From positions 2,313 to 66,312 of IMG/VR virus record IMGVR_UViG_3300027965_000212: a stretch of 64,000 nt of DNA. One strand, given 5' to 3'. Of this stretch, positions 5,214 to 64,000 are shown in pieces. The notes beneath the pieces are model-generated. The model was not told the origin of the DNA. It saw only the letters and a list, made by a program, of their open reading frames with translations, and made no database searches. The DNA comes from a virus. Position numbers and translations under genes: made by a program. Within the stretch, counting starts at the first letter, position 1, and the number at the start of each line of letters is the position of its first letter.

Positions 5214-6056
5214 TCAGTGCAAAATCTGCTCGATAACCGCCCAGGTCTTATTGCCGGCAACGCCATCTGCCTCGATGTCGTACGCCTCTTGGAAATGGCG
5301 GACGGCCGCGCGCGTCTTGTCGCCCTCGACGCCGTCGACAGCGAGCGGCGGATCGAGCTGCAGGATCTGGTTGAGATCGGTCTGCAGCGCCCGCACCGAG
5401 CGGTCGGTTGTGCGTCGGACCGGCTCCGGCCGGGGCGGTGCAAGCGGCGCCAGGCCGAGGCCTTTGCGGAAGAGATCAGCCTCATGGCCGCGCCGGCGCC
5501 AGAGATCGCTTCCTTCCAGCCAGAGCCGGCGCATCGACAGGAATTCGTCTGGGATGAGATCGAAGCGCCCAGCCAGCATATGCGCCTTGATGGACCGCAT
5601 TTCGGCATAGCGAGGCCCTGGTTCGTCGAACGAGCAGCCCCGGTTATAGGCGAGGCTCACCAGCGCGCCGTAGCTGTCGCCTGTCAGCTTGGCCGTAGGC
5701 AGCGCCGCATCGAGCCGCGCTTCCCACTTGGGCATCTCGCGCGTCGAGAATTCGGCGAGTGCCTGGTCCCAGGTGACGGTGACGCTGGTGCCATGCTGGG
5801 CGACGAATTGGTGTGCCGCCTCGCCCTTGAGGCCGCACGCCAACAGTACATGCGGGAGCATGTCATCGCTCAGGATCCCGCGGCAGTCGGCGGTCGCCTC
5901 ATCGCGCGTGACATAGCCGCAGTCGTAGCCGATCATGATGGTCGGGCCGGAGGCGCCCTGCGGCCATTCGAAGTGCGCGCAGTGGCGCAGATAATAAATC
6001 TTTCCGTCGACCTCCTCGGAGACGATCAAATTGAAGGCGTCCTGCGAGGATCTCAC
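5214..6056 (-). CDS. Endolysin: lysozyme-like (pesticin/T4L-type) domain plus C-terminal peptidoglycan-binding domain
   Basis: EE..SGPTIMIGYDCG, ALVSLAYNRG, RRRGHEADLF; LAVDGVEGDKTRAAVRHFQ..ADGVAGNKTW. Confidence 0.85.
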   Translation of the reverse strand: MRSSQDAFNLIVSEEVDGKIYYLRHCAHFEWPQGASGPTIMIGYDCGYVTRDEATADCRGILSDDMLPHVLLACGLKGEAAHQFVAQHGTSVTVTWDQALAEFSTREMPKWEARLDAALPTAKLTGDSYGALVSLAYNRGCSFDEPGPRYAEMRSIKAHMLAGRFDLIPDEFLSMRRLWLEGSDLWRRRGHEADLFRKGLGLAPLAPPRPEPVRRTTDRSVRALQTDLNQILQLDPPLAVDGVEGDKTRAAVRHFQEAYDIEADGVAGNKTWAVIEQILH

Positions 6057-6763
6057 GGAGATACCTCCGGCAGCGCCGCGCGCACCATCTTGCCGAGACC
6101 GACGCGGTCGAGCTCCTCCCAGACCTTGTTGAGCCAGGAGCGAACGTAGCCGCGCAGGATGCGCGATTGCCGATCATCGACCGTGAAGGCGGAGAATGAG
6201 CCGCCGAGCTTCTGGATCATCTCGCAGGCCTGCGCCGGGATATGCGGCACGCTCACCGTCATTCCGGACATCTGGGCGAAGATCGTGGCGAAGCGGTTGT
6301 CGCTGTCCCAATCGAAGAACCCAGTTTCGTTGATGTAGTTCTTGACGATGAAATGTTTGGTGCCTCCGCCGACCAGGCGCGCGGCCTGGTCGATCTCGTT
6401 GAACGAGGCGATCGAGGGGCCGAGCACATGCAGGAGCGCCAGGTTGATCTTGCCGCCGCGGATGTCGGTCAACAGCTGCGCCTCATCGAGCGCGCGCAGC
6501 GTGGGCGACAAGAGCCCGGCGCGGATGTCAAGGACGGTGACACCCTCGAGCGCGTCGAAGACCTTCATCTGGTCGCCGACCCTCTCGATGTCGATGACGG
6601 TTGCGCTGGGGCTAAAGCGCTTGAGATCGCCGGCCGGCCATTCGGAATCGAACAGCTTGGCGACAGCGCCGCGCGCGATCAGATAATCATCGAGCGCGCG
6701 CGCGACCGTAGTCTTGCCGACGCCGCCCTTGTCGGCGCCGACCATGATGATGAGCGGGGTCAT
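6053..6763 (-). CDS. ParA/MinD-type deviant Walker A ATPase
   Basis: VGADKGGVGKTT, FDSE, VTVLD; stop overlaps the endolysin start (GTGA). Confidence 0.8.
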   Translation of the reverse strand: MTPLIIMVGADKGGVGKTTVARALDDYLIARGAVAKLFDSEWPAGDLKRFSPSATVIDIERVGDQMKVFDALEGVTVLDIRAGLLSPTLRALDEAQLLTDIRGGKINLALLHVLGPSIASFNEIDQAARLVGGGTKHFIVKNYINETGFFDWDSDNRFATIFAQMSGMTVSVPHIPAQACEMIQKLGGSFSAFTVDDRQSRILRGYVRSWLNKVWEELDRVGLGKMVRAALPEVSP

Positions 6764-6841
6764 GTTTCGGCCTTTGATTTGCGCCGGAGCTGGCCGGCCA
6801 TAGCGCGCCGCGCGATGCGGCTCGTCGAGGAAGGTCAAGCT

Positions 6842-7873
6842 TCAGCCGACTGCGCGCAGGAGCGCGTTATCGTTGGCAGGGATCAACAATGCGGTCGGAG
6901 TGACGGTGATGCACCCCTGCTTGCCGCCCCCGGACGTCTGCGCGTTACCGGATGAGTTCGCGACGCCGCCGCTTCCGCCGCCATACTGACCGCCGTTGCC
7001 GGACTGCGAGGTGCCGGTGTTACCGTTGCCGCCGCCGCCGCCGCCGGAGCCACAGCCCCACTCTGTGCCCGTGTTGCCGGGATTGTTGGGGCCGGTACCG
7101 CCCGTTCCGCCCGTGCCGTTGTCGCCAGTGCCGCCCGTGCTCGAGACGTTGGCGCTGCAGGTCTGATTCGGACCGTTACCGCCGTTTCCGTTCGGGCCCG
7201 CCGCGCCGCCGGCCCCGCTCCCGCACGCAAGCGTCGTGCCGGTGGTCCCGGTCAGGTTGCCGCCCGCGCCGCCCGTCGCCGTGGTCGAGTTTCCCTTGCC
7301 GGCCCCGCCCGCGCCGCCGCTGCAATTGCCGCCGATGACCCCGATGCCGCCACCTGATCCGCCGGCACCGCCGACGCTCGCCGCCGCGTAGCTCGCTGCG
7401 TTGAAATACGTTGCGCCCCCTGGGTTCCCGGCACTCTGCGTCGAGATACCGGTGCCACCTAGGCCGATCGTATAGCTGACACCGGCGCCAGGAGAGATGC
7501 CGAGCCCGGTGTACTTCCCGTAACCGCCTCCGCCGCCGCCGCAGCCGACCTGGGAAGAGCCCGTCGCGTTCTGGGTACCGTTTCCGCCGCTACCCCCACC
7601 GCCGAGCGTCTCGATCGTGAAGATCGTGCACCCGTATATGTTGGTGAACGTGTTTGTGCCCGTCGCCGTCAGGACGATCGGCGTATGTTTGCACGCCGGC
7701 ATGATCGGCAACGGGCCGACCATCAGCGGCCCGATCTGCGCCAGCGCGTATCGCTGCGAGATGACGCGCCCGAGAATGTTGTCCCGCGCCGGGGCCGATG
7801 CGAGCGAAGCGTGAGCCGCAATAGCCAGCGCGATCGCGCACAGCCCGGTGAACAATTTCGACCAGCGTGTCAT
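6842..7873 (-). CDS. Glycine-rich fibre-like protein with signal peptide
   Basis: MTRWSKLFTGLCAIALAIAAHASLA; ETLGGGGSGG...GGGGGGY..YTIGLGG glycine-rich domain. Confidence 0.75.
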   Translation of the reverse strand: MTRWSKLFTGLCAIALAIAAHASLASAPARDNILGRVISQRYALAQIGPLMVGPLPIMPACKHTPIVLTATGTNTFTNIYGCTIFTIETLGGGGSGGNGTQNATGSSQVGCGGGGGGYGKYTGLGISPGAGVSYTIGLGGTGISTQSAGNPGGATYFNAASYAAASVGGAGGSGGGIGVIGGNCSGGAGGAGKGNSTTATGGAGGNLTGTTGTTLACGSGAGGAAGPNGNGGNGPNQTCSANVSSTGGTGDNGTGGTGGTGPNNPGNTGTEWGCGSGGGGGGNGNTGTSQSGNGGQYGGGSGGVANSSGNAQTSGGGKQGCITVTPTALLIPANDNALLRAVG

Positions 7874-7881
7874 GCCCCGCC

Positions 7882-8517
7882 TCACTGATGAGCGTAGACC
7901 GAGTACCCGGCGACGCCATTGACGCGCCAAATCGAGATCGTGAACTTGTGGCCATTTGTGGTGTCGAGAGAAGCGCCGGTATTCGACCCGACTGTGAAGC
8001 CGGAGAAGCCGATCGCGCCGGCGCTGGCGGCATTGATCACCAACAGAAGACAGGACCCGTCGTTGGCTGGTGCTGCGATCGTGAATGCGCCATTGTTGGT
8101 AACGTACTGAAGCGGCCGCGCGCCGCAATCGATCGTCAGCGTTCCGCTCGATTGCGTGCCGAGATTGTCAGCATTAACGTTGGCGCCCCCCGTGACCGTT
8201 TGATCTGCGGCCGTGAGGATGGCATCCGGCGCCATCTTCAGAATAAATTGCGTGCCGTCCCACTCGACCTCAGTCGCCTCTCCGCTCTGGATTTCTCCAC
8301 CCACTAATGCGGTAAGGGCAGAGTTGGCCAACTTTTTGATAGCTTGAGCGCCGAGCCCGTTAACGTTGAGCGTCGCCGCGCCCGTATTGCTAAAGTTGGG
8401 AATGAATCGCAGCGGCACGCCGGGGAGATTCGAGGTCCAATTGTCGATGCTGATCGCGTAAGCGTTAGGCGACCCCGTCGACGCCACGTCCCACGTTTGT
8501 TGCTCTGGAAATGTCAT
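7882..8517 (-). CDS. Tail fibre-related protein
   Basis: NTGAATLNVNGLGAQAIKK motif typical of fibres; ATGA-coupled to the upstream gene. Confidence 0.7.
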   Translation of the reverse strand: MTFPEQQTWDVASTGSPNAYAISIDNWTSNLPGVPLRFIPNFSNTGAATLNVNGLGAQAIKKLANSALTALVGGEIQSGEATEVEWDGTQFILKMAPDAILTAADQTVTGGANVNADNLGTQSSGTLTIDCGARPLQYVTNNGAFTIAAPANDGSCLLLVINAASAGAIGFSGFTVGSNTGASLDTTNGHKFTISIWRVNGVAGYSVYAHQ

Positions 8518-9044
8518 GACGATTGCACATCCCATGTTGACGATCCGCCATAGACGAAGCTCGCGGATTGTTGTTGCTTGTCCATGATGAAATTCGTGTT
8601 GCCGGCGATGTTGTGCGTGGCCGGCGGAACGATGGTCACCTTCGCGGTGTCGAAGTTCTTGGCGACGTCGGAGATGCGGTAGGTCTTTCCGACGACGAGC
8701 GATCCGCTTGCTGCCAGGTTGACCGTCATCGCGGTGACGGCGGCGGTCCGGTTGAGCAGGATGTTCGCATCCGTCACGCAGTCGAGATTGAGCGTTGCGC
8801 TCGAGGTGACGATCCGGGTCGGCGGCAGGAAATTCCCGCCGAGAGCCTGGATTGCAGCGAGCAGCTGCGCGAGATTGCCGTTGCTCGGCGCCAGGCCGGC
8901 CGCCTGGATGACGGCGATAATTTCCCGCTGCGTGTACTCGATCGCTGCCGCCGGGATGATCGAGCCGGCCGTTCCTGTTGCCGGATTCCCGTTTACGTAG
9001 CTCGCGTTCGGATCGGCATTGCCGTAAGGCTGATTGTATTGCAT
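8514..9044 (-). CDS. Tail fibre baseplate-anchoring protein (Mu gp49/S N-terminal-like)
   Basis: QREIIAVIQAAGLAPSNGNLAQLLAAI motif; follows the DUF2313 gene. Confidence 0.75.
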   Translation of the reverse strand: MQYNQPYGNADPNASYVNGNPATGTAGSIIPAAAIEYTQREIIAVIQAAGLAPSNGNLAQLLAAIQALGGNFLPPTRIVTSSATLNLDCVTDANILLNRTAAVTAMTVNLAASGSLVVGKTYRISDVAKNFDTAKVTIVPPATHNIAGNTNFIMDKQQQSASFVYGGSSTWDVQSS

Positions 9045-9055
9045 GCGGCTTCCTT

Positions 9056-9076
9056 GTCCCGCGATTGATCCGGGAC
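9056..9076. repeat. Degenerate REP-like hairpin
   Basis: GTCCCGCGATTGATCCGGGAC, intergenic. Confidence 0.5.
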
Positions 9077-9104
9077 GGTTGCGGGCGATAGAGCTGCAGA
9101 ATTG

Positions 9105-9779
9105 TTACGGCGTGCCGGCCATGGCGCCTTGCGGGCCCGGCGCGTAATCGAAGATCGGTTGCGTGTGTGCCGGCGCCCAGCGGCTGATGCGGCACTGTAG
9201 ATCGGTCGCCTGCGCGATGGTCAGCGAAGGGTCGACCCCGCATTGCCCTGAGCCGCAGCGAATCCAGGAGAGCCGCGTCAGCCCGATGTTGACGTTCCAG
9301 TAGTAGCGGATGGTCGCGGGGCCGAGCTCCCAGCGATAGGTTCCGGCCGGGTTGCGGGTATCGCCGCATTGCGAGAGCCCGCACATATAGGGCGAGTGTT
9401 CGCTGATCGTGATCGCGTAGCCCATCTCCGCCGCGGTCGCGATGAAGAATGCAATTGATTGACCGCCTTGCGTGGTGAGCTTGGCGACCAGCGCTGCTTG
9501 GCGCGCCTGGATCGTGCTGGGCTCCGCCATGCACGGATCCGGCAGCCCGAAATTCCTCTCCCAGTCAGGCAGCAGGTTGACGGTCGACCGCGGATCGCTC
9601 TCGACGGTCAGCAGCAGCGCAGCGGCGGCATCGACATCGCCCCAGATCGCCCCGATGCCGGCGCACCACTTCTGCAGATAGCTGGAGGGATCGCGCGGCC
9701 AGGCCGGACCGTCGGGAAGAAGGTCGCGGTACGCCTGGGCATAGTCGGAGCCCGAATGCGGCACCCACTTGTCGGGCAT
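9105..9779 (-). CDS. Baseplate protein YmfQ/DUF2313 (Mu gp48-like)
   Basis: LLPDGPAWP, LLPDWERNFGLPD, PAHT motifs. Confidence 0.9.
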   Translation of the reverse strand: MPDKWVPHSGSDYAQAYRDLLPDGPAWPRDPSSYLQKWCAGIGAIWGDVDAAAALLLTVESDPRSTVNLLPDWERNFGLPDPCMAEPSTIQARQAALVAKLTTQGGQSIAFFIATAAEMGYAITISEHSPYMCGLSQCGDTRNPAGTYRWELGPATIRYYWNVNIGLTRLSWIRCGSGQCGVDPSLTIAQATDLQCRISRWAPAHTQPIFDYAPGPQGAMAGTP

Positions 9780-9790
9780 TTTCGCTCTCT

Positions 9791-9861
9791 TGTCCCGGCC
9801 TTGAGCCGGGACCGTTTCAGACTGGAATGGTCCCGGCTCGCGCTATTGCGCGTCCGGGACA
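9791..9861. repeat. Two-hairpin REP/BIME-like element
   Basis: Reverse complement aligns with 30214-30299. Confidence 0.75.
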
Positions 9862-9865
9862 GGGA

Positions 9866-10951
9866 TCAGGCCCACGTGATCACGCCCAGCGTCGCCATGT
9901 GCCCGTTATCAGGCTGCACGAAGTCCGACATCGTCAGGTCGAACGACGCCACGCCTTGCGTATAGCGGATTGCGGCGGACACCCATTCGCTGAAAATCGT
10001 CTGCCCGGGTATTGCGACCTCGAACAGCATCGCGCTCACGGACGTCGCTATGGCGGCCTTGACGGCCGTGAGCGTGGTGTTCGCGGCAACCGCCAGGTTC
10101 GCGACCGTGAAGTTCATCGGGTTGGCGACCGGCGCCACGACGAAGAGATCCTGCACCGTGACCGGCCTGACCGTATTGAGATAGGCCGTCACGGCCGCAA
10201 TGTCCGCGGCTTGCGGGAAGCCATTGAATGCCGCCTCGAGCTCGTCGCACATGAAGCGAACCGTCACGGTGCCGATGCCCATCTCCTGCGGATAGCACCA
10301 GGCGCGCGTGACGCCGGCGACGCTCTCGGTCCAGGTCACATAGTCGGCCTGGTCGCCGCCCATAGGCGGCTCCTGGATGCGCTGCAGGAGGCGCGCGAGC
10401 AGCTGCGGATCCGTCTCCGCATCGGTGCCTCCGGTCAGCGTGACGACCGTCGCGCCGGCATCGACGCCCGGAATGGCGATCGCAAGCGTCAGCGTTTCGC
10501 CGGCATCGAGATTGCCTGCTGCGCCTGCGATCGTCGCCCTTATCGTGCAAGCGGTCGCACCTGAAATCACGATGGCTTCGGTCGTTTCATAGCCAATCGC
10601 CGGGGAGCCATAGCCGACGAGCTGCGAGCCGACCGGAACCGGTGTCGTGGCAAGGCCCGTGAATGTCACCGAGCCGCTGGCGTAGGTCGCGGCCTTGCGG
10701 CCTTTGCTGCCGTCCGCATTGGTGAGGAAGATCGTCGCCCAGCGATCGAGGAACTCCGATTCCGCGGTGTCGGGCAGCAGCTGTTTCGCCAGCCAATCCA
10801 GATATCGCAGATTGAGATATGCGAGACCCGCGTTGCCATCCGCCAGCACGCGCGAATTTGAATTCGGCGGCAGCGGCGCGCCGATCTGCGCGGTCACATA
10901 GTCGCGGTTTTGCTGACGGACCTGCGTCAGCGTCTGCGTGTTCCAGGGCAT
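9866..10951 (-). CDS. Baseplate J-like wedge protein (Mu gp47-like)
   Basis: LLPDTAESEFLDRW, GGTDAETD, PPMGGDQADYVTW, GVTRAW. Confidence 0.93.
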   Translation of the reverse strand: MPWNTQTLTQVRQQNRDYVTAQIGAPLPPNSNSRVLADGNAGLAYLNLRYLDWLAKQLLPDTAESEFLDRWATIFLTNADGSKGRKAATYASGSVTFTGLATTPVPVGSQLVGYGSPAIGYETTEAIVISGATACTIRATIAGAAGNLDAGETLTLAIAIPGVDAGATVVTLTGGTDAETDPQLLARLLQRIQEPPMGGDQADYVTWTESVAGVTRAWCYPQEMGIGTVTVRFMCDELEAAFNGFPQAADIAAVTAYLNTVRPVTVQDLFVVAPVANPMNFTVANLAVAANTTLTAVKAAIATSVSAMLFEVAIPGQTIFSEWVSAAIRYTQGVASFDLTMSDFVQPDNGHMATLGVITWA

Positions 10952-48997: not shown

Positions 48998-49383
48998 TTC
49001 GCTGCACCTCCGCACAAAACCAGCTCGGTGCCGGCGAGCCTGACGCGAGGCAGCCTCTTCCAGACTTCCGGGAATGCCGTCATCGAATTGCGAAACAGGC
49101 GCTCCGGATCGCAAGCTCCAGGCGAGAAAAATGTGCTGTTAGACCCCGGTCGATCGTCGACCGTGCGATCCCAAAACGAGATCGCCGAGTAACCCAACCC
49201 ATCGAGCCGCGCGAAGCAGGCCTGGAGCTCGTTCGGGGTGTATTGCTCAGGATGCGGAGCCAGCAGCCCATCGAAATGAGCCATCTGGCGGGTGAGTTCG
49301 TAGGCCGCGTGACGCATTCCGCGCTCAAACAGGAAGTGCCCGCTTTCGCCGTGGCAACCGAAGTACAGCCAGGTCCGGCTCAT
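48994..49383 (-). CDS. Hypothetical phage protein
   Basis: YFGC..GH; FWDRTVDDRPGSNSTF; coupled. Confidence 0.6.
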   Translation of the reverse strand: MSRTWLYFGCHGESGHFLFERGMRHAAYELTRQMAHFDGLLAPHPEQYTPNELQACFARLDGLGYSAISFWDRTVDDRPGSNSTFFSPGACDPERLFRNSMTAFPEVWKRLPRVRLAGTELVLCGGAAK

Positions 49384-51113
49384 CTGCTCCCCCACGCATA
49401 AGCTTTGGCCGCATGGAGCATCGGCGCCGGCTCGCGGGCGAGCTCCGGCACGTTGGCGCGCACAAGTGCAGTCGCAAACGGCGGCGGCACCGAGTTGCCG
49501 ACCATCCTGACCTGCACTGTTTTCGAGAAGCGGCGACCGTCGTGACCGCGATCGATGATGTAGTCATCGCGGAAGGAATGCGCGCGGTAGAGCTCCCGCG
49601 GCGTCAGCATCCGCATGCCGATGTCGACGATCTGATAGAGCGCACCCCTGACCAGCACCAGACCGAAGCGGTCGCGCGTCGTCACCGTATCGATCGGCTC
49701 GCGCAGGTCGGGATCCTGGTCGGTTCCGTAATATTTCAACAAAAAGGCGCGGACCTCGGCGAGATGCCATCCCGCGGCGGTGACGGTCGGCAGCGGGGCA
49801 CTAACCGGCGCGTCGCGCCGATCCGATCCCTTGAGGTTCACCAGGTGCGTGGCGCAGAGCGCCTGCGTGCAGCCTTTGGTGACGATCGTCGAGACCGGCT
49901 CGAGTGGCGAATGCCCGGGCTCCTGATAATTGTGCTGCGCCAAGAAGGCGGCAACCATCGCATGACGCGGTGCGCCGGCCATCACGGTATGCAGCGGATC
50001 GTCAGCCGGCGCCCCGCAACCATTCTCTTGGAATTTTGCCAGATGAACGGCCGCCAGGCTGCCCTGATTCGCGGTCGTGACGATCGTCGGCATCGGCTCA
50101 TCAGCCGCATGCGTGCGCGGATCCTGCCCGGGCCGTTCGCCGTAGCGCGGGACCAGAAACGGTGTCACCAGCGCATGCTCGCCGCGGTGCGCGGTCGTCA
50201 CCGTACGCAGCGGCTCACTGACGGCCTGGCCGCGCTCAGGATCGGTTCCGTGCGTGATCGGTACTATGAACGGCTCAGCCGCATTGATCACATAGCGCCA
50301 CACGCCCTTGGCGATGCGGGCCATCGTGGCGTCGGCGAGCGGTCGACGGACGCCGAGTGCGCGGGCCTCTTCTGGCGACAGGAAGATCGACGGGCACGGC
50401 AGCGACCAGTCGATGCAATCCGCGGCCGTGCCCCAGGGCTTCAATCCGCCGCTGATGACCGCGGGAGACTTCGGATCGTCATGGGTCGGCTCTGGCCAGA
50501 CGATCGACTTTCCATCACGCCGGCCGATCACGAAAAGGCGCTTGCGGGTCGTGCGCGCGCCGAATTTGCAGGCGCGCAGCTCGCGCCATTCGATCCGGTA
50601 GCCGTCACGCCGGCCGGCTTCGATCCAGCGCCCGAAATCCTCGCCCTCGCGTTTCTTGCAGGGGACGAGCAGCGGCGAGCCGTGGACGTCGAGGATCGGC
50701 TTTCGGTCCGGGCCGAGCTTGCGGACCAACGGGCCCCACTTCGCGAGCTCCTCGACATTCTCGACGACGAAGACGCGCGGGCGCTTTTTCTTGATCCAGC
50801 GCATGACGACCCAAGGCAGGTCCCGGCGATGGCGCTTGACCGGCTTGCCGCCCTTGGCTTTGCTGTGATGCGTGCAATCCGGACTGGCCCAGAGCAGTCC
50901 GATCGGCGCGTCGCCGATCACCCGCATCGGGCTGACCTGCATCAGGTTCGCGCGCAGGTGTCGCGTTTCCGGATGGTTGGCCTGGTGCATCGACAGCGCG
51001 TCTTCATCGTGGTTGATCGCGATGTCGGGCGAACGGTTGAGCGCAATGCGAATGCCTTCGCTCGCGCCGCCCCCGCCGGCGAACAGGTCGACGATGAGCT
51101 CTTCCGCGCTCAT
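49380..51113 (-). CDS. C5 cytosine DNA methyltransferase
   Basis: DLFAGGGG, SPDC, ENV, RKR, RMLTPREL, GNSV. Confidence 0.95.
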   Translation of the reverse strand: MSAEELIVDLFAGGGGASEGIRIALNRSPDIAINHDEDALSMHQANHPETRHLRANLMQVSPMRVIGDAPIGLLWASPDCTHHSKAKGGKPVKRHRRDLPWVVMRWIKKKRPRVFVVENVEELAKWGPLVRKLGPDRKPILDVHGSPLLVPCKKREGEDFGRWIEAGRRDGYRIEWRELRACKFGARTTRKRLFVIGRRDGKSIVWPEPTHDDPKSPAVISGGLKPWGTAADCIDWSLPCPSIFLSPEEARALGVRRPLADATMARIAKGVWRYVINAAEPFIVPITHGTDPERGQAVSEPLRTVTTAHRGEHALVTPFLVPRYGERPGQDPRTHAADEPMPTIVTTANQGSLAAVHLAKFQENGCGAPADDPLHTVMAGAPRHAMVAAFLAQHNYQEPGHSPLEPVSTIVTKGCTQALCATHLVNLKGSDRRDAPVSAPLPTVTAAGWHLAEVRAFLLKYYGTDQDPDLREPIDTVTTRDRFGLVLVRGALYQIVDIGMRMLTPRELYRAHSFRDDYIIDRGHDGRRFSKTVQVRMVGNSVPPPFATALVRANVPELAREPAPMLHAAKAYAWGSR

Positions 51114-51349
51114 GCGGCTCTCCGCGGCTGCAGGTCCGCAGCTTCTATCCATTGATCGACTTTGCCGGCGATCTGGCGGCGCGCTTCGTCGACCGAGCAT
51201 GCGCGCGCCATCGACCCGCAAAACGGCAGGCGAAGCGACCAATAGAACTTTCCACCGACCGGATAAGGAATGATGTCAGCGACGATGATGGCGCCGAGCA
51301 GCGCAACCTCGCGCCCCTCCCCTCGAGACTCGAAGCGGACCACGCTCAT
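51110..51349 (-). CDS. Hypothetical
   Basis: Coupled ORF in early operon. Confidence 0.5.
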   Translation of the reverse strand: MSVVRFESRGEGREVALLGAIIVADIIPYPVGGKFYWSLRLPFCGSMARACSVDEARRQIAGKVDQWIEAADLQPRRAA

Positions 51350-53264: not shown

Positions 53265-54037
53265 GCCGCGGGTGCCTCCGCAGCTGCGCGAGCCTCATCG
53301 TTTCGGCGCTTGATCTCGGTGCTGACCGCGAACATCACATCCTCATCGAAATCGCGGGCGAGCACCCAATGGAGGAAGCCGTCATCGACCTCGCTCCAGC
53401 GCTTGCCGCGGTGTTGGCCGAATGGCACGCGCGGCAACAGCGCCGGCTCGCTTGTCCATTGGATCAACTGCTCGAGCGGAACGGTTTCCAGCATCGCGGC
53501 GAGCAGATGCGCGGTGACATAGGCGTCCGGTAGCGCGCGATGGGCAAGCTCCGCATATTCGCGGATGAGCCCGGGAGGCTTCAGCCAGTAGCGTAGCGCT
53601 TGATTGGAATGAGCCGGCGCATCCGGCCAGAGGCGAAGGGCGCACTTCCAGGTGCAGACCCAGGGCGCCCCCCCCGTCATTTCATCGGAGATGAAGGCGC
53701 GCTCGAATTTGGCCGAGTGCGCGCACCAAGCCGCGACCGGAATGGTATAGCGGTCGAGCGCGAGAGACGTGAAGATCGGCCACGCATCCGCGAAGGACGG
53801 TGCGCCGATCAGATCCTCATCAACGATATGGTGGACGGCGCTCGCGACCGGCGGGATCACCCTACTCGGCCGACAGAGCCTGTTGCGATGGGCATGATAT
53901 TCGACCGTCGACCGCCCGCTGTTACGCAGCACATCGACCGTGGCGACTTCGATCACCTCGGCGTCAGGGGGAAATCCGGTCGTTTCAAGGTCAACGACGC
54001 GGATCAGGCTCACGGTTTCGTCAATCGTATCGCTCAC
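53261..54037 (-). CDS. DEDDh 3'-5' exonuclease (ExoX-like)
   Basis: VDLETTG, AHSAKFE, HRALPD, PFGQHRGK.W. Confidence 0.9.
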   Translation of the reverse strand: MSDTIDETVSLIRVVDLETTGFPPDAEVIEVATVDVLRNSGRSTVEYHAHRNRLCRPSRVIPPVASAVHHIVDEDLIGAPSFADAWPIFTSLALDRYTIPVAAWCAHSAKFERAFISDEMTGGAPWVCTWKCALRLWPDAPAHSNQALRYWLKPPGLIREYAELAHRALPDAYVTAHLLAAMLETVPLEQLIQWTSEPALLPRVPFGQHRGKRWSEVDDGFLHWVLARDFDEDVMFAVSTEIKRRNDEARAAAEAPAA

Positions 54038-55926
54038 TCTGCAGCCTCCATCGCCGGACCAGCGGCGTAAATCACCGTCTCGATCGGCGCCCACTTGTTG
54101 CAGGTCATGCCGGCGCCGATCGCGCCGCTGACGCGACGACATTCGTGCTCGCTGATGCGGTTCTTGCAGGCGCCGCAGTGCCGATATCCGCCTGGGGTCC
54201 CCGGGTTAAACCCGGGGATCGCGCGGTAATGCGCTTCGTCCTGGCTGATCTGATCTTGCGGTTCTGGCGGGACCGCCTGGTTGCCCCAGAAGCGCCAGTC
54301 CGGCCACCTGCTTTCATCGAGCAGGCGATTGCCGGCGTCATCAAAGACACGGGCGAACAACTCGATCTTGGGAACGCCCGGAAAATAGCGGTCGATCATC
54401 GCGCGGACCGCATCCGGCTTGGCCGAATGCTCGCCCACGACCGTATCTAGGATCGACAGGTCCTGTTGCCCCTCGAGCGGGCAAGGCACGTCGCCCTTGA
54501 CGCCGAGCAGCAACAATTCGTGCGCGTTGATCCACCAGAAGCCGGTGCCGCGGTGCCAGTTTCCGGAGGTCGAGCGCTTGGCCCAGACCATGTGTGAGCG
54601 ATAATCGCCCTCCCCGACCGGCGCCAAGGCTTTGCCGTTCTCACGAACGAGGCGACCTTGCGCATCGCGCGGGCGCAGCCTGCAGAATCCCCACTCGGCC
54701 ATCAACTCGATCTGGTCGATCAGCGAAGGCTGCCAGGCGTACATCAGGAGCGCGCAGTTATCGGCGGCGAGCTCTCGCACCGGCAGGTCGATAAGCGCAT
54801 CGAGCGGTGCCGTCGCGTAGTGATTTTCCGGCGACTTCTCCATGCCAGTCTGTGCCGACCAGGCCTTCCAGTCGCGCGGAATATCGACATAGATCACGCC
54901 AAACTTATTGCCGGTGAGCAAGGGAGCCGCTTGCGGCGCGCGCATCTGCTCGAGCTTGCGCTCGCGGCTTTGCTCGCGTTTCGCTGTGCGGTTTGCCTTC
55001 GCCACATCCTTGACGGCCTTCGGATCGGCGCTGGCGATGATGCGCTTCTGCTCCTCGATCGGGAGCTGAGCGATCTCGGCGGCAGCTTCCGTCGCGACCT
55101 TGCCGGCCGTGACCGCCTCGACGAGCTCCGGCGCGCCCTTCTGCGCCACAACGGCCGCGCGTTGGACGCTGCGGCGCGAGACGTTCATCAGCTCCGCCGC
55201 CTCGGTCTGAGACATCAGCGGCTTTGGCGGCTCGATCGGCGAAGGCGCCTGCACCCGCTCAACAAACTCGCGCACGTCAGTTGGAGGAAGGTCGCTCTTG
55301 ATGGGCTTGCCGTCGAATTCGCACCAATGCGCCTCGCAGGCAGCGTCCATCTGGACGCCCTTGTCTGACACCGGAAAGCGGAAGACGGCGCCGCACTCGC
55401 AGGTGCCGACGCTCATCGGCTCATTGCCGTCGCCCGGATATTCGCGCGTCATGGTGATGACGTGCCCGGCCGGCCAGCTTGTGCGGGTCGGTTTCGCGGG
55501 GCGCGTAGGCTGCGCGAGCGGCAGAGCGGGTGCGCCAATTGGCGCAGGCTTGGCCGTGTGCTGGTTGCCGCCAAGCCTGATCTCCGCCATTTTCGCGGCG
55601 ATCATCGCGCGCTGTTGCGTATTCAAGTGGCGGCGATGGATGTTCTCCGAGGCGACCAGGTCGAGGGCTTCGCGGTCAGAACCGGCAAAGACCTGCGTCG
55701 CGATCCCGATGCCGAGCTCGGTTGCGGCCTTATAGCGATTGCGGCCGTCGAGGAGCATTCCCCGATGAAGGATGATCGGATGATTGATGCCGTTCTGCTT
55801 GATGTCGGCGAGGTGGGCGGCATATTCCGCATCGCTCATCATCGGGAACAGATCGGCGAACGGGTGCGGCTTGAGCGCCGGCGCGCCGGGCGGCAGATGT
55901 TGGACGGAGCCGAGCTTGATGGTCAT
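54034..55926 (-). CDS. ParB-N + HTH + MT-A70 methyltransferase + HiPIP-like fusion
   Basis: LLDGRNR, ENIHRRHL, SQTEAAELMNVSRRSV, YVDIPR, HY, W.K, HE.LL.G.KG, EHSAKP, IELFAR, WGNQ, CxxC..C..C. Confidence 0.88.
   Translation of the reverse strand: MTIKLGSVQHLPPGAPALKPHPFADLFPMMSDAEYAAHLADIKQNGINHPIILHRGMLLDGRNRYKAATELGIGIATQVFAGSDREALDLVASENIHRRHLNTQQRAMIAAKMAEIRLGGNQHTAKPAPIGAPALPLAQPTRPAKPTRTSWPAGHVITMTREYPGDGNEPMSVGTCECGAVFRFPVSDKGVQMDAACEAHWCEFDGKPIKSDLPPTDVREFVERVQAPSPIEPPKPLMSQTEAAELMNVSRRSVQRAAVVAQKGAPELVEAVTAGKVATEAAAEIAQLPIEEQKRIIASADPKAVKDVAKANRTAKREQSRERKLEQMRAPQAAPLLTGNKFGVIYVDIPRDWKAWSAQTGMEKSPENHYATAPLDALIDLPVRELAADNCALLMYAWQPSLIDQIELMAEWGFCRLRPRDAQGRLVRENGKALAPVGEGDYRSHMVWAKRSTSGNWHRGTGFWWINAHELLLLGVKGDVPCPLEGQQDLSILDTVVGEHSAKPDAVRAMIDRYFPGVPKIELFARVFDDAGNRLLDESRWPDWRFWGNQAVPPEPQDQISQDEAHYRAIPGFNPGTPGGYRHCGACKNRISEHECRRVSGAIGAGMTCNKWAPIETVIYAAGPAMEAAE
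55531..55546. repeat. 16-bp palindrome copy 6 (inside the ParB gene)
   Basis: TGCGCCAATTGGCGCA encoding APIGA after GGNQH. Confidence 0.95.
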
Positions 55927-56162
55927 TGTTCAGTAGGGCCTGATCCCAAAGCTCGACACGATCCAACCGGCGACGGCGAGCACCAGCGCGGCGATGAAAT
56001 AATCGAAGAATAGTGAGGCAGCCACGGTGGATATCCCCAACCCAAAGAGAAGCGCGCGCAAGGCCGCGAAGGGATCGCAATCATAGGGGTAACCATGAAT
56101 GGGGACCCGCAGATCGCGACCTTGCGCAACTGAATGCAACAACAAACAAACGCGAGGAGGAA

Positions 56163-56369
56163 CTAGCCGCAGCCACCCCTTCGGCGCGGATAGAGAGAAC
56201 GAGCAGCCCCAAGAAGAATGCCAGCGATGATGATGCGGGCGCGCCTTGTAACGAGGCGCTCGATCTCTGTGGCCTGCGCCTCGGTGAAGAGCGCAGCGGC
56301 GCGCGGCGATCTTCCGCGCGCGAGCATGCGCTGCTTGCGGAGAGCGGGAGAGTTCGGGTGCCGCTTCAT
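56163..56369 (-). CDS. Hypothetical
   Basis: ORF in cro-proximal operon. Confidence 0.4.
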   Translation of the reverse strand: MKRHPNSPALRKQRMLARGRSPRAAALFTEAQATEIERLVTRRARIIIAGILLGAARSLYPRRRGGCG

Positions 56370-56522
56370 GCGGCGCTCCTGAATTCGGCTGCCGTCTCTC
56401 CGGCTGTCGCGCCTAGCGTTCGCGGCGGCGTTCCCGCGCGGTTGCTACTCGCACCGCCTTGAGTCCGGTTCTCTCCGCATTTGATTCCGCTGCAGGCACC
56501 GGCAACCCCGCCCAGAATTCCG

Positions 56523-56906
56523 TCAAATGCCGATCCTATCGACGGCCGCCCGCACGGCGTCCGCCAGTGCGAGCTTGCGCGCGATGCGATGATGCGAGCC
56601 GAGGATGATCGAGATCGCCCGCTCGCCATGTTTGTCCGAGGCGATGATTGCAGCGAGCACCCAGGAATCCGGCTCTGATTTCCCCTGGCACCATGCGCGG
56701 CAGGTGCGGTCGGAGCAGCCGGTGAGGCATTCGAACTCTTTTGCCGGGATAAGCGGGGGCGGCCAAAGGCGCTCGACCAAATAAGTGAACGACCAGTTTC
56801 GCGGCAGAATCCTGCCGCCACCGTCAAGCGGGCGACCGTCCCGGCAAAATCCTGCCGATTGTTCGATTGCACGAACTGCAGTCGTGGATACTGATTCGCC
56901 CGCCAT
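56523..56906 (-). CDS. HTH regulator in CII-like position
   Basis: AKEFECLTGCSDRTCRAWCQGKSEP. Confidence 0.6.
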   Translation of the reverse strand: MAGESVSTTAVRAIEQSAGFCRDGRPLDGGGRILPRNWSFTYLVERLWPPPLIPAKEFECLTGCSDRTCRAWCQGKSEPDSWVLAAIIASDKHGERAISIILGSHHRIARKLALADAVRAAVDRIGI

Positions 56907-57430
56907 GACGCCACCCCTACTCGACCAACAACAAATTCATTCGGAATTAGCCGGCTCTGCGCGCGGAAGTGCCGGCCGATCGGAGAACAGGTTCCAGCGT
57001 CCCGATCGGCCGGCCTCGCTGCATCCCCCGACATCGCCAGAAGTGGAGGCTGAGCTTTGGAATTGATTTTTTCTTCCTGCATCGTCACGCGCGACGACCA
57101 CATGATCGTGATCGCGCTATTCGACGGCGATCCGGCAACCTCTGTCGGACTGCTGAGAGGCAGCGAACAGGCGGCGACGGCCTTGCTCGAGGCGCTCGCC
57201 GAAGTGCTGGGTTCCCCGCCGAATTCGGTTTCGGAATAAGCCCTTAGCGATCGGCAAAAATTCCAGGAGATCGTCTTTACTTTTCCGCCATCTGACGCGG
57301 TTCCCGGAATTTCTGAGTTCTCCCCGCTCTCAACACGAAATGCAGTGGATTCCCGTTGTGTATTGCATCCGACACTACCGCGACACCACACTTGCGCGTC
57401 CATGTCGGACAAAGTTGTGGGGAGGTAACG

Positions 57431-57715
57431 ATGCTTGGAGAAGCGCAGCGCGAAGAACAGCTCACAATATCGGAGCCTGCAGGCGTGCCGGAAATCTGGT
57501 TCGACGCCGTCGCCTGGATATACGACAAGGGGGATTCCTGCCGGATCGTACTCTACAGCGAAGATCGCCCGCTCGGGCCGGATGGGCCGCTCGAGCGGCG
57601 GATCGTCGCGAAGCTGGTCGGCCCCAGCGGCAGCCTCTTCGCGATCGTCGAGGCGATCACGAACCATCTCGCGCGAAGGGAGAGAGGCGCCAACGCGGGA
57701 CGACTGTTGAGCTGA
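57431..57715 (+). CDS. Hypothetical convergent with cro
   Basis: GGAGG SD; EPAGVPEIWFD..ERRIVAKLV. Confidence 0.55.
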   Translation: MLGEAQREEQLTISEPAGVPEIWFDAVAWIYDKGDSCRIVLYSEDRPLGPDGPLERRIVAKLVGPSGSLFAIVEAITNHLARRERGANAGRLLS

Positions 57716-57738
57716 GATCATATCCGGTGCGGAGGCGC

Positions 57739-57954
57739 TCATGATTGGGCCGCCTCCGCGGAAGGAGCGGGATAAAGATCGGGGCGCAGCTCATGCCGTG
57801 GCACACCGGTCAAGCGCTCAACCTCGAGCACCCGGCCCGAGGGCACGCGCCTCCATTGCGAAATCGCTTGGGGCGAGATGGCGCCCCCAAAGAGCCGGCT
57901 GAGGCCGGAATTACCGCCCGCCGCCTCTTTCGCGCGAATCAATCCATCGCTCAT
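57739..57954 (-). CDS. Cro/YdaS-like repressor
   Basis: AGG..LSR..ISPQAISQW..VP..VERLTGVPRHELRPDLY; divergent from cI. Confidence 0.9.
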   Translation of the reverse strand: MSDGLIRAKEAAGGNSGLSRLFGGAISPQAISQWRRVPSGRVLEVERLTGVPRHELRPDLYPAPSAEAAQS

Positions 57955-57962
57955 GCGCAATT

Positions 57963-58032
57963 GAAAGCATTGCTTTCCCGATGTTGCAAGCACCTCTTTC
58001 AGTGATTGAAAGCGAGCGAAAGGTTACCTTTC
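57963..58032. promoter_or_regulatory. OR-like triple operator
   Basis: GAAAGCATTGCTTTC 57963-77, GCAAGCACCTCTTTC 57986-58000, GAAAGGTTACCTTTC 58018-32. Confidence 0.85.
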
Positions 58033-58037
58033 AATGC

Positions 58038-58757
58038 ATGGACAGCCAAAAAACACTCGGTGAGCGAATACGTTACATACGAAAAGGGCATGGCCTCTCG
58101 CAGCAGCAGTTCGGAAAAATTCTGGGGGTAGAGCGCGGCGCCGTTGGCAATTGGGAACTCGGGAAGGGAATCAAGTCCGAGAATCAACGGCAGATCAGCC
58201 AAAAATTCCATGTAACGCTGGATTGGCTGATGAACGGCGACGCAGAGCTCCCTCAAATGCCGAGCAATCGCGAACTATTTCCAAGTTTTCGCGTGAGCCA
58301 TCATGGCCTTGAAGAGCCAGTTCCGATCCAGCCTGCGCCGCCGGCCGGAGCCGTCGAGCTCGGTTCAACAGTGCCGCTAATGCGACAGGGCCGGGCCGGA
58401 AAAGACGGTCAATTCGGCTTTACCCGGGAGCAGGCGGCCGATGTCCCGGCTCCCCCGGCCATCGCCCGGGTCCGCGACGCCTATGCGGTGTATGTGGTCG
58501 GAGAATCCATGCAACCTCGATACGATCCGGGCGAAATCGTGTTTGTGGACCCTAACAGGCCGGTAAATCCCGGCCATTACGTTGTGGCCCAAATCGCGGG
58601 TGAGGGCGGCGAAGGCCCGGTCGGATACATCAAGCGCTTTCTTGGTCGCGACAGCCGGCAGCTGCGCCTGGAGCAATTCAACCCAAAGAAAATACTTACG
58701 TTTCCATTGAAGAGCGTGATTTCGGTCGATCGGATACTCATGAGCGGGGACGGATGA
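58038..58757 (+). CDS. CI-like repressor (XRE HTH plus S24 peptidase)
   Basis: LGERIR..LSQQQFG..V..WE.G; GESMQP..GE.VFVDP; IKR. Confidence 0.95.
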   Translation: MDSQKTLGERIRYIRKGHGLSQQQFGKILGVERGAVGNWELGKGIKSENQRQISQKFHVTLDWLMNGDAELPQMPSNRELFPSFRVSHHGLEEPVPIQPAPPAGAVELGSTVPLMRQGRAGKDGQFGFTREQAADVPAPPAIARVRDAYAVYVVGESMQPRYDPGEIVFVDPNRPVNPGHYVVAQIAGEGGEGPVGYIKRFLGRDSRQLRLEQFNPKKILTFPLKSVISVDRILMSGDG

Positions 58758-62494: not shown

Positions 62495-62754
62495 TGGCAC
62501 TCAAAGCCCCGACAGATGCCATTGTCGCGCTATTGCGGGAGCGCCCGGGGCTTACCGCTCGGGAGATCGAGGCGCATTTCAGCATCGAGCCATCCGGCTG
62601 CTTCAATCGTCTGATCAAGCTTGCCGCTCGCGGGATCCTCCGCGTCGAGGTCGAGAGCCGGTCTTTTCACCGCGATCCGCGTGGCCGGTGCTTCACGACC
62701 GGCGCGCAGACGCGGCGCTACTTCGCGCCGCCGATCCTCGAGGCCGCAGAATGA
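62494..62754 (+). CDS. Winged-helix hypothetical
   Basis: LLRERPGLTAREI..L.KL..RG. Confidence 0.55.
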   Translation: MALKAPTDAIVALLRERPGLTAREIEAHFSIEPSGCFNRLIKLAARGILRVEVESRSFHRDPRGRCFTTGAQTRRYFAPPILEAAE

Positions 62755-63149
62755 GCGCGCCAATCCTCCTCGCCGCAGCCGCCGCCGAGCTCGGCATGAC
62801 GCTCAGGGGGCTCAAGGATTGGCTTGCCCGCAACCCGATGGATGCTGCGGGCGAGCCGTTTTACAGCTTCCACGGCCGCGTTCGTGTGTTCTACGATACG
62901 GATATCGCCCGCATCCGCGCCGCCAAGCGGGAGGAGACCAGATGCCGTTTAAGCTCGTCCCGCCCCGTCAAGGGCAAAGCTCGAATTGGCGCATCCGCGG
63001 CACGCACCTCAAAGTCTACGTTGACCGCACTAGCGGAACTCCTAAACGATCCGTCGCTCGCTCCATCCGCGACGCCCTCGAGCGCGCCGTCGAGCGTGGC
63101 GAGTACCCGCCCAAAGAGGAAGCGCCCGCAGCTCGAGCTGGTGCGCTGA
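62751..63149 (+). CDS. Excisionase-like HTH protein overlapping the integrase 5' end
   Basis: AAAELGMTLRGLKDWL..GRVRVFYDTDIARI; position. Confidence 0.6.
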   Translation: MSAPILLAAAAAELGMTLRGLKDWLARNPMDAAGEPFYSFHGRVRVFYDTDIARIRAAKREETRCRLSSSRPVKGKARIGASAARTSKSTLTALAELLNDPSLAPSATPSSAPSSVASTRPKRKRPQLELVR

Positions 63150-64000
63150 CCTTCGCGGAAGCGGCCCTCGCCTATCTCAAGGCTGGCAAGCGGAAACGCT
63201 ACATCGGCAAGCTCGTCAAGCATTTCGGCGACACGCCGATCAGCTCGATCGACCAGGCGGCAATCAACGCCGCCGCTGATGCTCTCTGCCGGCCGGGCAC
63301 CGGCGGCGGCGGACGCAATGCGGCCGTCTATACTCCGGTTGCCGCGATCCTGCACCACAATGGCGTCGCCATTCAGGTGAAGCGCCCCAAAGGCGCCAAG
63401 GGCCGCATTGTTACCGACTGGCTGACGATCGAGGACGCCGCGCTGATCATCGACGCGGCCTATGCGATCGATGCCGAGTTCGGCCTCTATCTGAAGCTTT
63501 TGCTCTACACGGGCCCGCGTCGCGCCGAGCCGCTTAAATGGCTGCGCAGCGACTTCAGGGCCGACGAGCGCACCATCTGGACCCGGCGCGGCAAGAAAGG
63601 CATCGCGTCTAACGTCAAGCTCCGGCCGGAGCACGCCGAGGAACTCGCCAAGCACATCGCCGGCCATGAGCGCGAGCACATCTTCCGCTTCCGGGACGGC
63701 GGACACTTCGCGCACATGCTCACGCGCGCCAAGCTCAAGGCGCTCGGCCTGCCCTGCCCGACCACACGGCCGACCGGATGGAGGCCGCCGGCGAACCGCT
63801 TCGCGTGGGTCACATTCCACATTTTCCGCCACACATGGGCGACCTGGCTGCGCCTCTACGCCGGCTTCGATGACATCGATCTCGCTGCCACGGACAACTG
63901 GCGGGATCCTCGCAGCGCGCGACGCTACATGCATGCGCTGCCGCGCGGGCAATGGGACAAGGTCGGTTTGCTGCCGGATATCGCGCGGAAGAAGGCCTAA
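62942..64000 (+). CDS. Tyrosine integrase
   Basis: YTGPRRAE, K, HIFRHTWATW, W, RRYMH catalytic residues. Confidence 0.93.
   Translation: MPFKLVPPRQGQSSNWRIRGTHLKVYVDRTSGTPKRSVARSIRDALERAVERGEYPPKEEAPAARAGALTFAEAALAYLKAGKRKRYIGKLVKHFGDTPISSIDQAAINAAADALCRPGTGGGGRNAAVYTPVAAILHHNGVAIQVKRPKGAKGRIVTDWLTIEDAALIIDAAYAIDAEFGLYLKLLLYTGPRRAEPLKWLRSDFRADERTIWTRRGKKGIASNVKLRPEHAEELAKHIAGHEREHIFRFRDGGHFAHMLTRAKLKALGLPCPTTRPTGWRPPANRFAWVTFHIFRHTWATWLRLYAGFDDIDLAATDNWRDPRSARRYMHALPRGQWDKVGLLPDIARKKA

Follow-up and report, generated by a model that had tools for sequence, protein, structure and literature searches.

Fusions of a ParB fold to a DNA methyltransferase have been described as enriched in prophages, with a predicted part in DNA modification or anti-defence, in the available text of both a 2025 survey of the ParB-CTPase fold (PNAS, PMC12704722) and an account of the 'ParB-Tls locus' (Iyer et al., PMC4738411). 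A protein which likewise joins these two parts, P0001, is encoded within the 64,000 nucleotides spanning positions 2,313 to 66,312 of the IMG/VR virus record IMGVR_UViG_3300027965_000212, a stretch to which we refer as the window. P0001 is a prophage protein with an MT-A70 domain, unlike the fusions stressed in the available portions of the survey, where the phage examples carry N6_N4 and Methyltransf_23 domains and MT-A70 fusions are enriched in archaea (PMC12704722). The same layout as that of P0001 occurs in Agrobacterium phage Rivra, where a ParB domain (DGHHR) is fused to an MT-A70 domain (DPPW). Amino-methyltransferases are commonly recognized by the motif (D/N/S)-P-P-(aromatic), which is treated as their hallmark, and proteins that have lost it, such as METTL14 and MTA9, are routinely taken to be inactive. 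P0001 departs from the hallmark in reading D-I-P-R, and this departure proves to be the signature of an entire subfamily.

The gene is an intact open reading frame (ORF) of 630 amino acids on the minus strand; it begins at an ATG, placed as in the homologues P0002 and P0005, and ends at a TGA. A first-pass annotation, made from the sequence without database searches, had read it as a fusion of five parts, namely a ParB CTPase, a zinc-like insert, a helix-turn-helix (HTH) region, an MT-A70 domain with an atypical motif and a tail resembling iron-sulfur proteins of high potential (HiPIPs). This architecture is borne out by the ORF, by domain matches, by an AlphaFold2 (AF2) model and by family alignments (Table 1). 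When coordinates were re-derived from the translation, every motif it had named was present at the expected place: DGRNR at D60-R64, DIPRDW at D348-W353, HY at 369-370, WxK at 448-450, HE at 469-470, EHSAKP at 499-504, ELFAR at 522-526 and WGNQ at 547-550, followed by cysteines 584, 587, 596 and 609. P0001 is a member of the MT-A70 family by sequence and by fold, and lies outside the canonical definition of that family at motif IV.

Pfam PF05063 matches P0001 at E 6.1e-11, its 43 bits lying above the cut-off of 23.9, and also matches 32 of the 34 representatives of the D-x-P-R subfamily defined below. The AF2 model of the domain, for which the predicted local distance difference test (pLDDT) is mostly above 85, resembles METTL3 (Foldseek E 2.4e-13, TM-score relative to the target 0.69) and MTA1 (E 4.5e-12), and a family profile compared with the PDB retrieves the same two proteins (MTA1 2e-29, METTL3 5e-28). 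The modelled domain is a permuted (class beta) Rossmann fold of the kind found in METTL3 and MTA1. Its HSxKP and ELFxR segments align to 'SHKPDE' and 'IELFGR' of METTL3, which contact S-adenosylmethionine (SAM) in published structures.

The replacement of DPPW by DIPR, which the first-pass annotation had pointed out, is confirmed by the columns of the family alignments. Across 74 homologues, drawn from 117 matches after discarding those to ParB alone and those with no recorded MT-A70 domain, D-[IVL]-P-R occurs 21 times, the others carrying DPPW, DPEW, DPPT, D[YF]EW and further variants. A wider, exhaustive HMMER search, for which residues 330-560 served as the query, yielded 6070 matches at E≤0.001, of which the best 150 (representatives, each standing for a cluster at 50% identity) were aligned with P0001. 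Motif IV reads DPEW in 57 of these 151 rows, DPPW in 40, D-x-[P/A]-R in 34 and something else in 15, and is missing from five fragments; as the 150 were picked by a D-x-P-R query, they are enriched for that type and its share among the 6070 cannot be read from them. D348 and R351 are both invariant in the 34 D-x-[P/A]-R rows (34/34 each), the P350 column holds 31 prolines and three alanines, and V, I, W, Y or L occupies the second position. Against these we set 92 canonical rows, that is, DPPW or DPEW rows without the insertion described below, in every one of which (92/92) the R351 column is tryptophan. With the motif and insertion columns excluded, the 34 rows form one side of a single branch both in a FastTree of 146 rows (SH-like support 96) and in a quick IQ-TREE of 76 rows (SH-aLRT, the Shimodaira-Hasegawa-type approximate likelihood ratio test, 97); the latter, for which SH-aLRT is the only support measure, comprised the 34, seven hand-picked rows and a random 40 of the rest, which overlap the picked rows. 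DIPR is accordingly a conserved subfamily signature and not a single lesion, as the alignment of motif IV across homologues, proposed as a check in the first-pass annotation, makes plain. That annotation had also held that finding DIPR commonly among active homologues would speak against its reading; the variant is common among homologues, and the conservation described next is what suggests that they are active.

The other family motifs of P0001, which had been listed as remaining, are indeed kept, and in its subfamily they are kept at the canonical rate. In D-x-P-R and canonical rows, respectively, the residues are retained as follows: H369 in 32/34 and 91/92, Y370 in 33/34 and 92/92, W448 in 34/34 and 90/92, K450 in 32/34 and 92/92, E470 in 34/34 and 91/92, H500 in 32/34 and 90/92, S501, K503 and P504 each in 33/34 and 92/92, E522 in 34/34 and 92/92, and R526 in 33/34 and 92/92. 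Conservation of the HY, WxK, GxW, HE, HSxKP, ExFxR and WG motifs is as strict in the subfamily as in the 92 canonical rows, and the cofactor-side W547 and G548 are present in P0001 and conserved among its D-x-P-R relatives. The subfamily has further residues of its own at F375, S397, S401, D405 and E411, in place of which P0001 itself has L at 375, A at 397 and Q at 405. We considered whether W353 of DIPRDW might be the catalytic tryptophan displaced by a shift in register, and rejected this: the corresponding column is phenylalanine in 83 of the 92 canonical rows (DPPW-R-F) and variable in D-x-P-R rows (F16/H8/P4/W2).

Motif IV is unusually variable among alphaproteobacterial and prophage MT-A70 proteins in general. 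DPEW outnumbers DPPW in our rows, and whole groups of homologues carry DPPT, D[YF]EW, DPAW or DDEH (P0023-P0037, P0029/P0030/P0268, P0151-P0264). Judging from these alignments, the second proline of the motif is clearly dispensable in the bacterial MT-A70 branch sampled.

A second peculiarity accompanies the arginine. All 34 D-x-P-R rows contain an Arg-rich insertion of 27-33 residues after the 'WGF' of the domain (27 in P0001), with conserved R418, R420, G424, R428, G431 and G440, at a site where the 92 canonical rows have two residues. Five rows with canonical motifs are exceptions, P0134 (DPPW) bearing a homologous insertion of 30 residues and P0158, P0163, P0242 and P0250 (DPEW) shorter ones of 21-23 residues, so the insertion is not strictly tied to the arginine variant; all of these rows fall on the canonical side of the tree. 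When residues 336-560 were modelled as a homodimer with the 34-row alignment, the predicted pairing received a score of 0.86, where the best of three controls received 0.00. Of proteins solved as same-chain pairs, 20 of 30 attain the mark used for this score, and of those solved as single chains, one of 23; these counts hold only roughly here since the alignment was of our own making. Separate runs agreed in at least 95% of contacts, with a partner pLDDT of at least 79. The predicted interface comprises the helix 399-411 and insertion residues 415-420, 422-426, 428, 431-433 and 437-438, so that the model puts the extra element of the subfamily where the two subunits meet, which is also where METTL3-METTL14 has its substrate groove. 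On the strength of these models, the MT-A70 domains of P0001 probably pair as a homodimer.

The variant domain appears to be a movable part. P0005 is 80% identical to P0001 over the ParB region, 82% over the insert and 74% over the HTH region, yet only 39% identical over the methyltransferase domain, which in P0005 is a canonical DPPW domain without the Arg-rich insertion. This comparison suggests a natural cassette exchange, in which D-x-P-R and DPPW domains are interchangeable on one chassis of ParB fold, insert and HTH. Moreover, an N-terminus like that of P0001 is recognizable in only 14 of the 34 D-x-P-R representatives, and DUF3102 stands in place of a detectable ParB N-terminal domain in seven; the variant methyltransferase domain is thus combined with several N-terminal modules.

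For the N-terminal region, the first-pass label of ParB CTPase stands as regards the fold and its GxxRxxA motif, but as regards CTPase activity it overstates the evidence. P0001 has a ParB Box II (G61-R62-N63-R64-Y65-K66-A67) and a stretch like Box III (E94-N95-I96-H97-R98-R99-H100-L101), and G61, R64 and R98 are invariant across the 74 homologues. Over positions 20-117, the profile of these homologues matches Spo0J (E 9e-8), Noc (2e-7), the ParB-family protein 7bnk (4e-6) and ParB 6t1f (8e-4) in the PDB, P0001 as a single sequence matches Spo0J at E 0.0065, and the AF2 model is confident throughout residues 1-125 (pLDDT 87-97). Where the canonical GERR motif has its glutamate, P0001 has an arginine. 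According to the available text of the survey, the nucleotide bound by this fold is not predictable from sequence or from AlphaFold3 (AF3), and the methyltransferase fusions surveyed bound ATP (PMC12704722).

The insert had been called zinc-like. That it is a conserved element stands, but the basis for a metal site is a different set of ligands from the four cysteines of this copy: H155, C176, C178 and H200 are invariant in all ten of the insert-bearing homologues aligned (H..CxC..H), and C197 and C202 are not conserved. Residues 157-204 are modelled confidently as three strands and a helix. An insert profile returned nothing significant from the PDB (best E 0.35 for the Rpp21 zinc ribbon, then IscA at 0.61 and NDUFS6 at 0.85), and a comparison with the Atlas gave no significant relative, with feature scores of at most 0.77 and structure rows without a named family. 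A metal site here may be regarded as a reasonable guess. In the region that follows, PHROG 4715, 'ParB-like partition protein', matches residues 239-353 (E 2.2e-14), AF2 predicts confident helices at residues 240-329, and Pfam HTH models match residues 238-256 below threshold (E 0.06-0.2).

The C-terminal tail has the pattern C584-x2-C587-x8-C596-x12-C609, conserved in all five tails aligned. Its profile matches PioC (6xyv), a HiPIP, at E 4.6e-4 over 38 residues, including all four cysteines and the surrounding V/I and aromatic positions. The NCBIfam model Iro reaches the tail at E 0.0023 (18.2 bits against a cut-off of 100), and Atlas structure rows relate it to HiPIP clusters at TM-scores of 0.58-0.59, below the bar of the tool. 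The earlier description of the tail as HiPIP-like therefore stands as regards the alignment to PioC but finds no counterpart in Pfam. A word search restricted to the region recovered only P0001 among 21 candidates, and a profile search among longer proteins recovered six of 594 candidates, all of them ParB-MT-A70 fusions with the H..CxC..H insert. From its sequence, we regard the tail as probably a HiPIP-like metal site of [4Fe-4S] type, a rare accessory outside the catalytic core. The Atlas structure rows also include two phage-only clusters below the bar of the tool, a family of 56 residues and a PAP2/HNH family of 737 residues; small HiPIP-like modules with four cysteines may be more widespread in phage proteins.

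Table 1. Position, strand and supporting evidence of P0001, its parts and neighbouring genes in the window.
Feature	Position	Strand	Evidence
Whole gene P0001: ParB-N / insert / HTH / MT-A70 / four-Cys tail	54034..55926	(-)	ORF list and translation
ParB N-terminal (ParB/Srx, 'ParB-CTPase') fold, residues 1-125	55552..55926	(-)	Family profile, invariant residues, AF2
Conserved insert, residues about 152-206, putative metal site	55309..55473	(-)	Alignment of 10 inserts, pLDDT 74-91
Helical ParB-type HTH / DNA-binding region, residues 235-330	54937..55224	(-)	PHROG 4715, Pfam sub-threshold, AF2 helices
MT-A70 methyltransferase domain, residues 336-556	54259..54921	(-)	Pfam PF05063, Foldseek, profile against PDB
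Variant motif IV, D348-I349-P350-R351 (canonically D-P-P-W)	54874..54885	(-)	Alignment columns
Arg-rich insertion, residues 415-441, in predicted homodimer interface	54604..54684	(-)	Alignment; dimer model
HiPIP-like four-Cys tail, residues 580-615	54082..54189	(-)	Tail profile against PioC; NCBIfam Iro; Atlas rows
DnaQ-type exonuclease, downstream of P0001 gene	53261..54037	(-)	Pfam RNase_T E 1.8e-12, PHROG 192 E 3.4e-40
C5-cytosine DNA methyltransferase, second methyltransferase of the operon; start uncertain	49380..51242	(-)	Pfam DNA_methylase 2.2e-25, PHROG 116 3.9e-94
Cro/YdaS-like first gene of early operon	57739..57993	(-)	Pfam YdaS_toxin 1.7e-10, P22_Cro 5.7e-5
CI/LexA-type repressor (HTH and S24 peptidase), divergent from early operon	57981..58757	(+)	Pfam Peptidase_S24 8.7e-11, HTH_19, HTH_3
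Tyrosine integrase, running past window end	62621..64000	(+)	

The prophage is an integrated one, and P0001 belongs to its early operon. The genes of this operon are tightly packed, and on the minus strand P0001 is followed by the DnaQ-type exonuclease, a DUF7220 protein, a MazG-like protein, the C5 methyltransferase, two helicases and a replication initiator, after which come TerS, TerL and portal genes (Pfam, PHROG). The likely GTG start of the exonuclease, at 54037, overlaps the TGA stop of P0001 (GTGA, 54034-54037), an arrangement which suggests that methyltransferase and exonuclease are translationally coupled; the ORF list places the exonuclease start at an upstream ATG (54142) within the P0001 gene. 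On the other side, a hydrophobic ORF of 71 codons (55930-56145, minus strand), which matches no known family in Pfam or PHROG, stops three bases before the ATG of P0001. Between the Cro-like gene and the methyltransferase there is also an ORF of 458 codons (56366-57742, minus strand) with no Pfam or PHROG match, which may be a spurious frame of high guanine-cytosine content. The window contains no tRNA genes.

The C5-cytosine methyltransferase of the operon is long, at about 590-620 amino acids. The same pairing of enzymes is seen in Bradyrhizobium phage ppBdUSDA122-1, where an MT-A70-like protein with DPAW (5509-7488) precedes a C5 methyltransferase (8197-9780); the latter is followed there by a Cys/His-rich 'cytochrome C' of 70 residues (9777-9989), with no evident likeness to the tail of P0001. 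In 40 related genomes we found no close orthologue of P0001, the best matches being partial and 37-46% identical, which fits strain-specific cargo of a prophage. These partial matches break at residues 414|442, that is, they lack the Arg-rich insertion, and no D-x-P-R gene was found in the same 40 genomes.

Taking the architecture, the subfamily membership, the conservation pattern and the prophage context as observed, we infer the activity, substrate, dimer, metal and role of P0001, and we give somewhat better than an even chance to its being a prophage methyltransferase that is active and probably homodimeric, whose base pocket is altered and which carries a rare accessory of HiPIP-like kind. 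The first-pass annotation had left the choice between an enzyme of altered specificity and a catalytically dead scaffold; the evidence favours the former and not the latter. An arginine that replaces the aromatic residue in 34 of 34 rows indicates that one particular residue has been selected for, and not that the motif has eroded. The invariant Asp, the invariant Arg, the retained cofactor motifs and the presence of a single MT-A70 gene in the genome together lead us to rate an active enzyme above a dead scaffold, and the interchange of two methyltransferase types on one chassis suggests that they do the same kind of job.

Such an enzyme would be expressed early by the prophage, and the nucleic acid on which it acts would most likely be DNA of the phage itself. 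The ParB fold and the ParB-type HTH would load it onto DNA, possibly under the control of a nucleotide, and the MT-A70 domains would pair, the Arg-rich insertion widening both the interface and the adjoining nucleic-acid groove. SAM would be bound as in canonical MT-A70 enzymes. In the pocket for the flipped base, the Asp of motif IV would be kept and the invariant Arg would take the place of the stacking tryptophan, from which it follows that the preferred base or sequence probably differs from that of DPPW and DPEW relatives. Methylation would then shield phage DNA from host restriction during replication, jointly with the C5-cytosine methyltransferase of the operon, which is the usual role of orphan methyltransferases in phages. 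The C-terminal module with four cysteines would form a HiPIP-like metal site, probably [4Fe-4S], and would not belong to the catalytic core. Both the ParB and HTH modules and the neighbouring C5 DNA methyltransferase point to a DNA target and to protection of the phage from restriction. The published expectation for prophage ParB-methyltransferase fusions, as given in the available text of PMC12704722 and PMC4738411, agrees in predicting modification of phage DNA.

Several points weigh against this interpretation. In amino-methyltransferases the target base is normally stacked against the aromatic residue of motif IV, and a protein without this residue could have lost catalysis altogether. Conservation is the ground on which the D-x-P-R group is argued to be active, and the rows that display it are those enriched by the choice of query. 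The success of the homodimer prediction may reflect a memory, within the model, of the solved METTL3-METTL14 and MTA1-MTA9 dimers. A DNA substrate is not assured either, for a prophage MT-A70 protein with DPPW methylates 16S rRNA, and not DNA, together with a partner, according to the available text of PMC10810198. The profile scan and structure prediction which the first-pass annotation had proposed as checks were each favourable in part. In Pfam, MT-A70 exceeds its cut-off, but ParB_N, HTH and HIPIP models give no passing match on P0001: PF02195 (ParB_N) fails to match it even at E≤1, while matching the homologues P0030 and P0050, and no Pfam model, including HIPIP (PF01355), matches any of the five tails at E≤10. 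PF01355 likewise has no match anywhere in the genome at E≤1. The AF2 model is confident for the ParB fold, the insert, the HTH region and the METTL3-like MT-A70 domain, but not for the tail, where pLDDT is 47 when folded alone with the five-tail alignment and below 50 in the full model. Finally, a Zn(Cys)4 site would be equally compatible with the sequence of the tail.

These difficulties invite other explanations. That P0001 is a dead pseudoenzyme, acting as a DNA-bound scaffold or regulator akin to a repressor-like ParB/HTH protein, or as the non-catalytic half of a dimer, would account for a motif IV without its first proline and its aromatic residue, and two DNA-binding modules could well work without catalysis. 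Eroded versions of the motif are also what the known non-catalytic partners show, EPPL in METTL14 and NALW in MTA9, in the available text of PMC7544214. METTL14 and MTA9, however, have lost the initial Asp as well and rely on a paralogue that is active, whereas in D-x-P-R proteins the Asp is invariant in 34 of 34 rows, as is the Arg, and the cofactor-side motifs are as strict as in the 92 canonical rows. P0005, moreover, holds a canonical DPPW domain in the very slot concerned. A heterodimer with a second MT-A70 protein was rejected on the grounds that the genome, 99% complete, contains a single PF05063 match and hence no gene for an active partner. We therefore judge a dead pseudoenzyme to be unlikely. 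Quite unlikely, in our estimation, is an enzyme that methylates RNA, for example rRNA, and so tunes host translation or prophage induction instead of protecting DNA. The precedent is M.EcoPA8orf6770P, a DPPW enzyme with a preference for 16S rRNA once it has bound PNB-2, a small partner encoded just upstream (PMC10810198, available text); the ORF of 71 codons and no known family ends three bases upstream of the P0001 gene, and the methyltransferase domain of P0001 matches 353 phage records, Stx-converting phages included. The fusion to a ParB N-terminal domain and a ParB-type HTH, together with neighbours comprising a C5 DNA methyltransferase and replication genes, points instead to DNA, and the Stx enzyme apparently lacks such fusions, the word 'ParB' occurring zero times in the available text of PMC10810198.

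About as improbable as an RNA target is a retargeted amino-methyltransferase, whose arginine pocket would select an acceptor other than adenine (N4 of cytosine, N2 of guanine or a base already modified) or one that is not a nucleic acid. Such an enzyme would have gained a new modification activity, as distinct from a shifted sequence specificity. The base-stacking position is invariantly Arg, the second position of motif IV is hydrophobic in 34 of 34 rows, and the subfamily shows further changes of its own at F375, S397, S401, D405 and E411. N4-cytosine enzymes have arisen repeatedly from N6-adenine enzymes through changes in motif IV, but by changing its first position to Ser, not its last (PMC4738411, available text). 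Since Arg is itself able to stack on adenine, the target may have stayed the same, and residues 375 and 399-411, which the model assigns with the insertion to the dimer interface, need not line the base pocket. Least probable of all those we considered is the proposal that D-x-P-R proteins are a new class of enzymes modifying nucleic acids, which would use the invariant Arg in the pocket for the flipped base and write a mark other than the N6-methyladenine of DPPW relatives, on another or a pre-modified base, with P0001 being additionally under redox control through a HiPIP-type [4Fe-4S] cluster and under nucleoside triphosphate control through a ParB clamp.

An active, probably homodimeric prophage methyltransferase being the explanation we favour, its standing relative to described proteins may now be considered. 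Canonical MT-A70 enzymes (DPPW/DPEW), such as M.EcoPA8orf6770P of the Stx prophage phiPA8 (PMC10810198, available text), share with P0001 the Pfam family, the fold and a prophage origin. They also share the HY, WxK, HE, HSxKP, ELFxR and WG motifs; P0001 differs from them in DIPR, in the Arg-rich insertion of 27 residues after 'WGF' and in six further subfamily-specific residues. In a phage collection, the 353 records matched by the methyltransferase domain are all below 60% identity, the best among the matches listed being 35%, and none of the 30 listed of these 353 spans the length of the insertion. Of the two cultured phages inspected, Bradyrhizobium phage ppBdUSDA122-1 reads DPAW and Rivra DPPW. 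The D-x-P-R variant, the H..CxC..H insert and the HiPIP-like tail go without mention in the available text of PMC12704722 and PMC4738411, and full-text word searches of a limited literature collection returned no description of a D-x-P-R MT-A70 protein or of a HiPIP-methyltransferase fusion. Within the literature searched, we found no account of the D-x-P-R subfamily and its insertion, nor of the H..CxC..H insert or the HiPIP-like tail.

HiPIPs are [4Fe-4S] proteins of 50-100 residues (PMC7462912, available text). PioC, of 54 residues, is such a protein from Rhodopseudomonas palustris TIE-1 and a free-standing electron carrier. The tail of P0001 aligns with it at all four cysteines, but forms the C-terminus of a cytoplasmic DNA enzyme, fails the Pfam HIPIP model and cannot be folded with confidence; were its resemblance to prove true, it would represent an unusual fusion of an electron-carrier module to a DNA enzyme.

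The lineage to which P0001 belongs is borne by prophages, has exchanged the aromatic residue of motif IV for an invariant Arg while keeping the other catalytic and cofactor motifs, and appears to swap places with canonical domains on the same chassis. If it is active, the rule by which MT-A70 proteins are called 'dead' needs a caveat. A new target preference would then be possible, with a bearing on phage escape from restriction and possibly on the use of such enzymes as reagents. If it is inactive, P0001 would be the first bacterial counterpart of the non-catalytic MT-A70 subunits of eukaryotes.

METTL3-METTL14 and the ciliate MTA1-MTA9 are heterodimers, in each of which an active subunit with DPPW pairs with an eroded partner (PMC7544214, available text). 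P0001 resembles them in fold and in the predicted pairing of MT-A70 domains, and differs in being a single gene, with a predicted homodimer and with a motif IV whose Asp and Arg are both invariant. Nor does it have the features of partners of the METTL14 or MTA9 type, its Asp and cofactor motifs being kept and no MT-A70 paralogue accompanying it. Both the joining of a ParB fold to a methyltransferase in a prophage and the fold and dimer of MT-A70 proteins were already known; in P0001, bacterial DNA-binding modules stand where the METTL3 and MTA1 systems have CCCH or homeobox partners.

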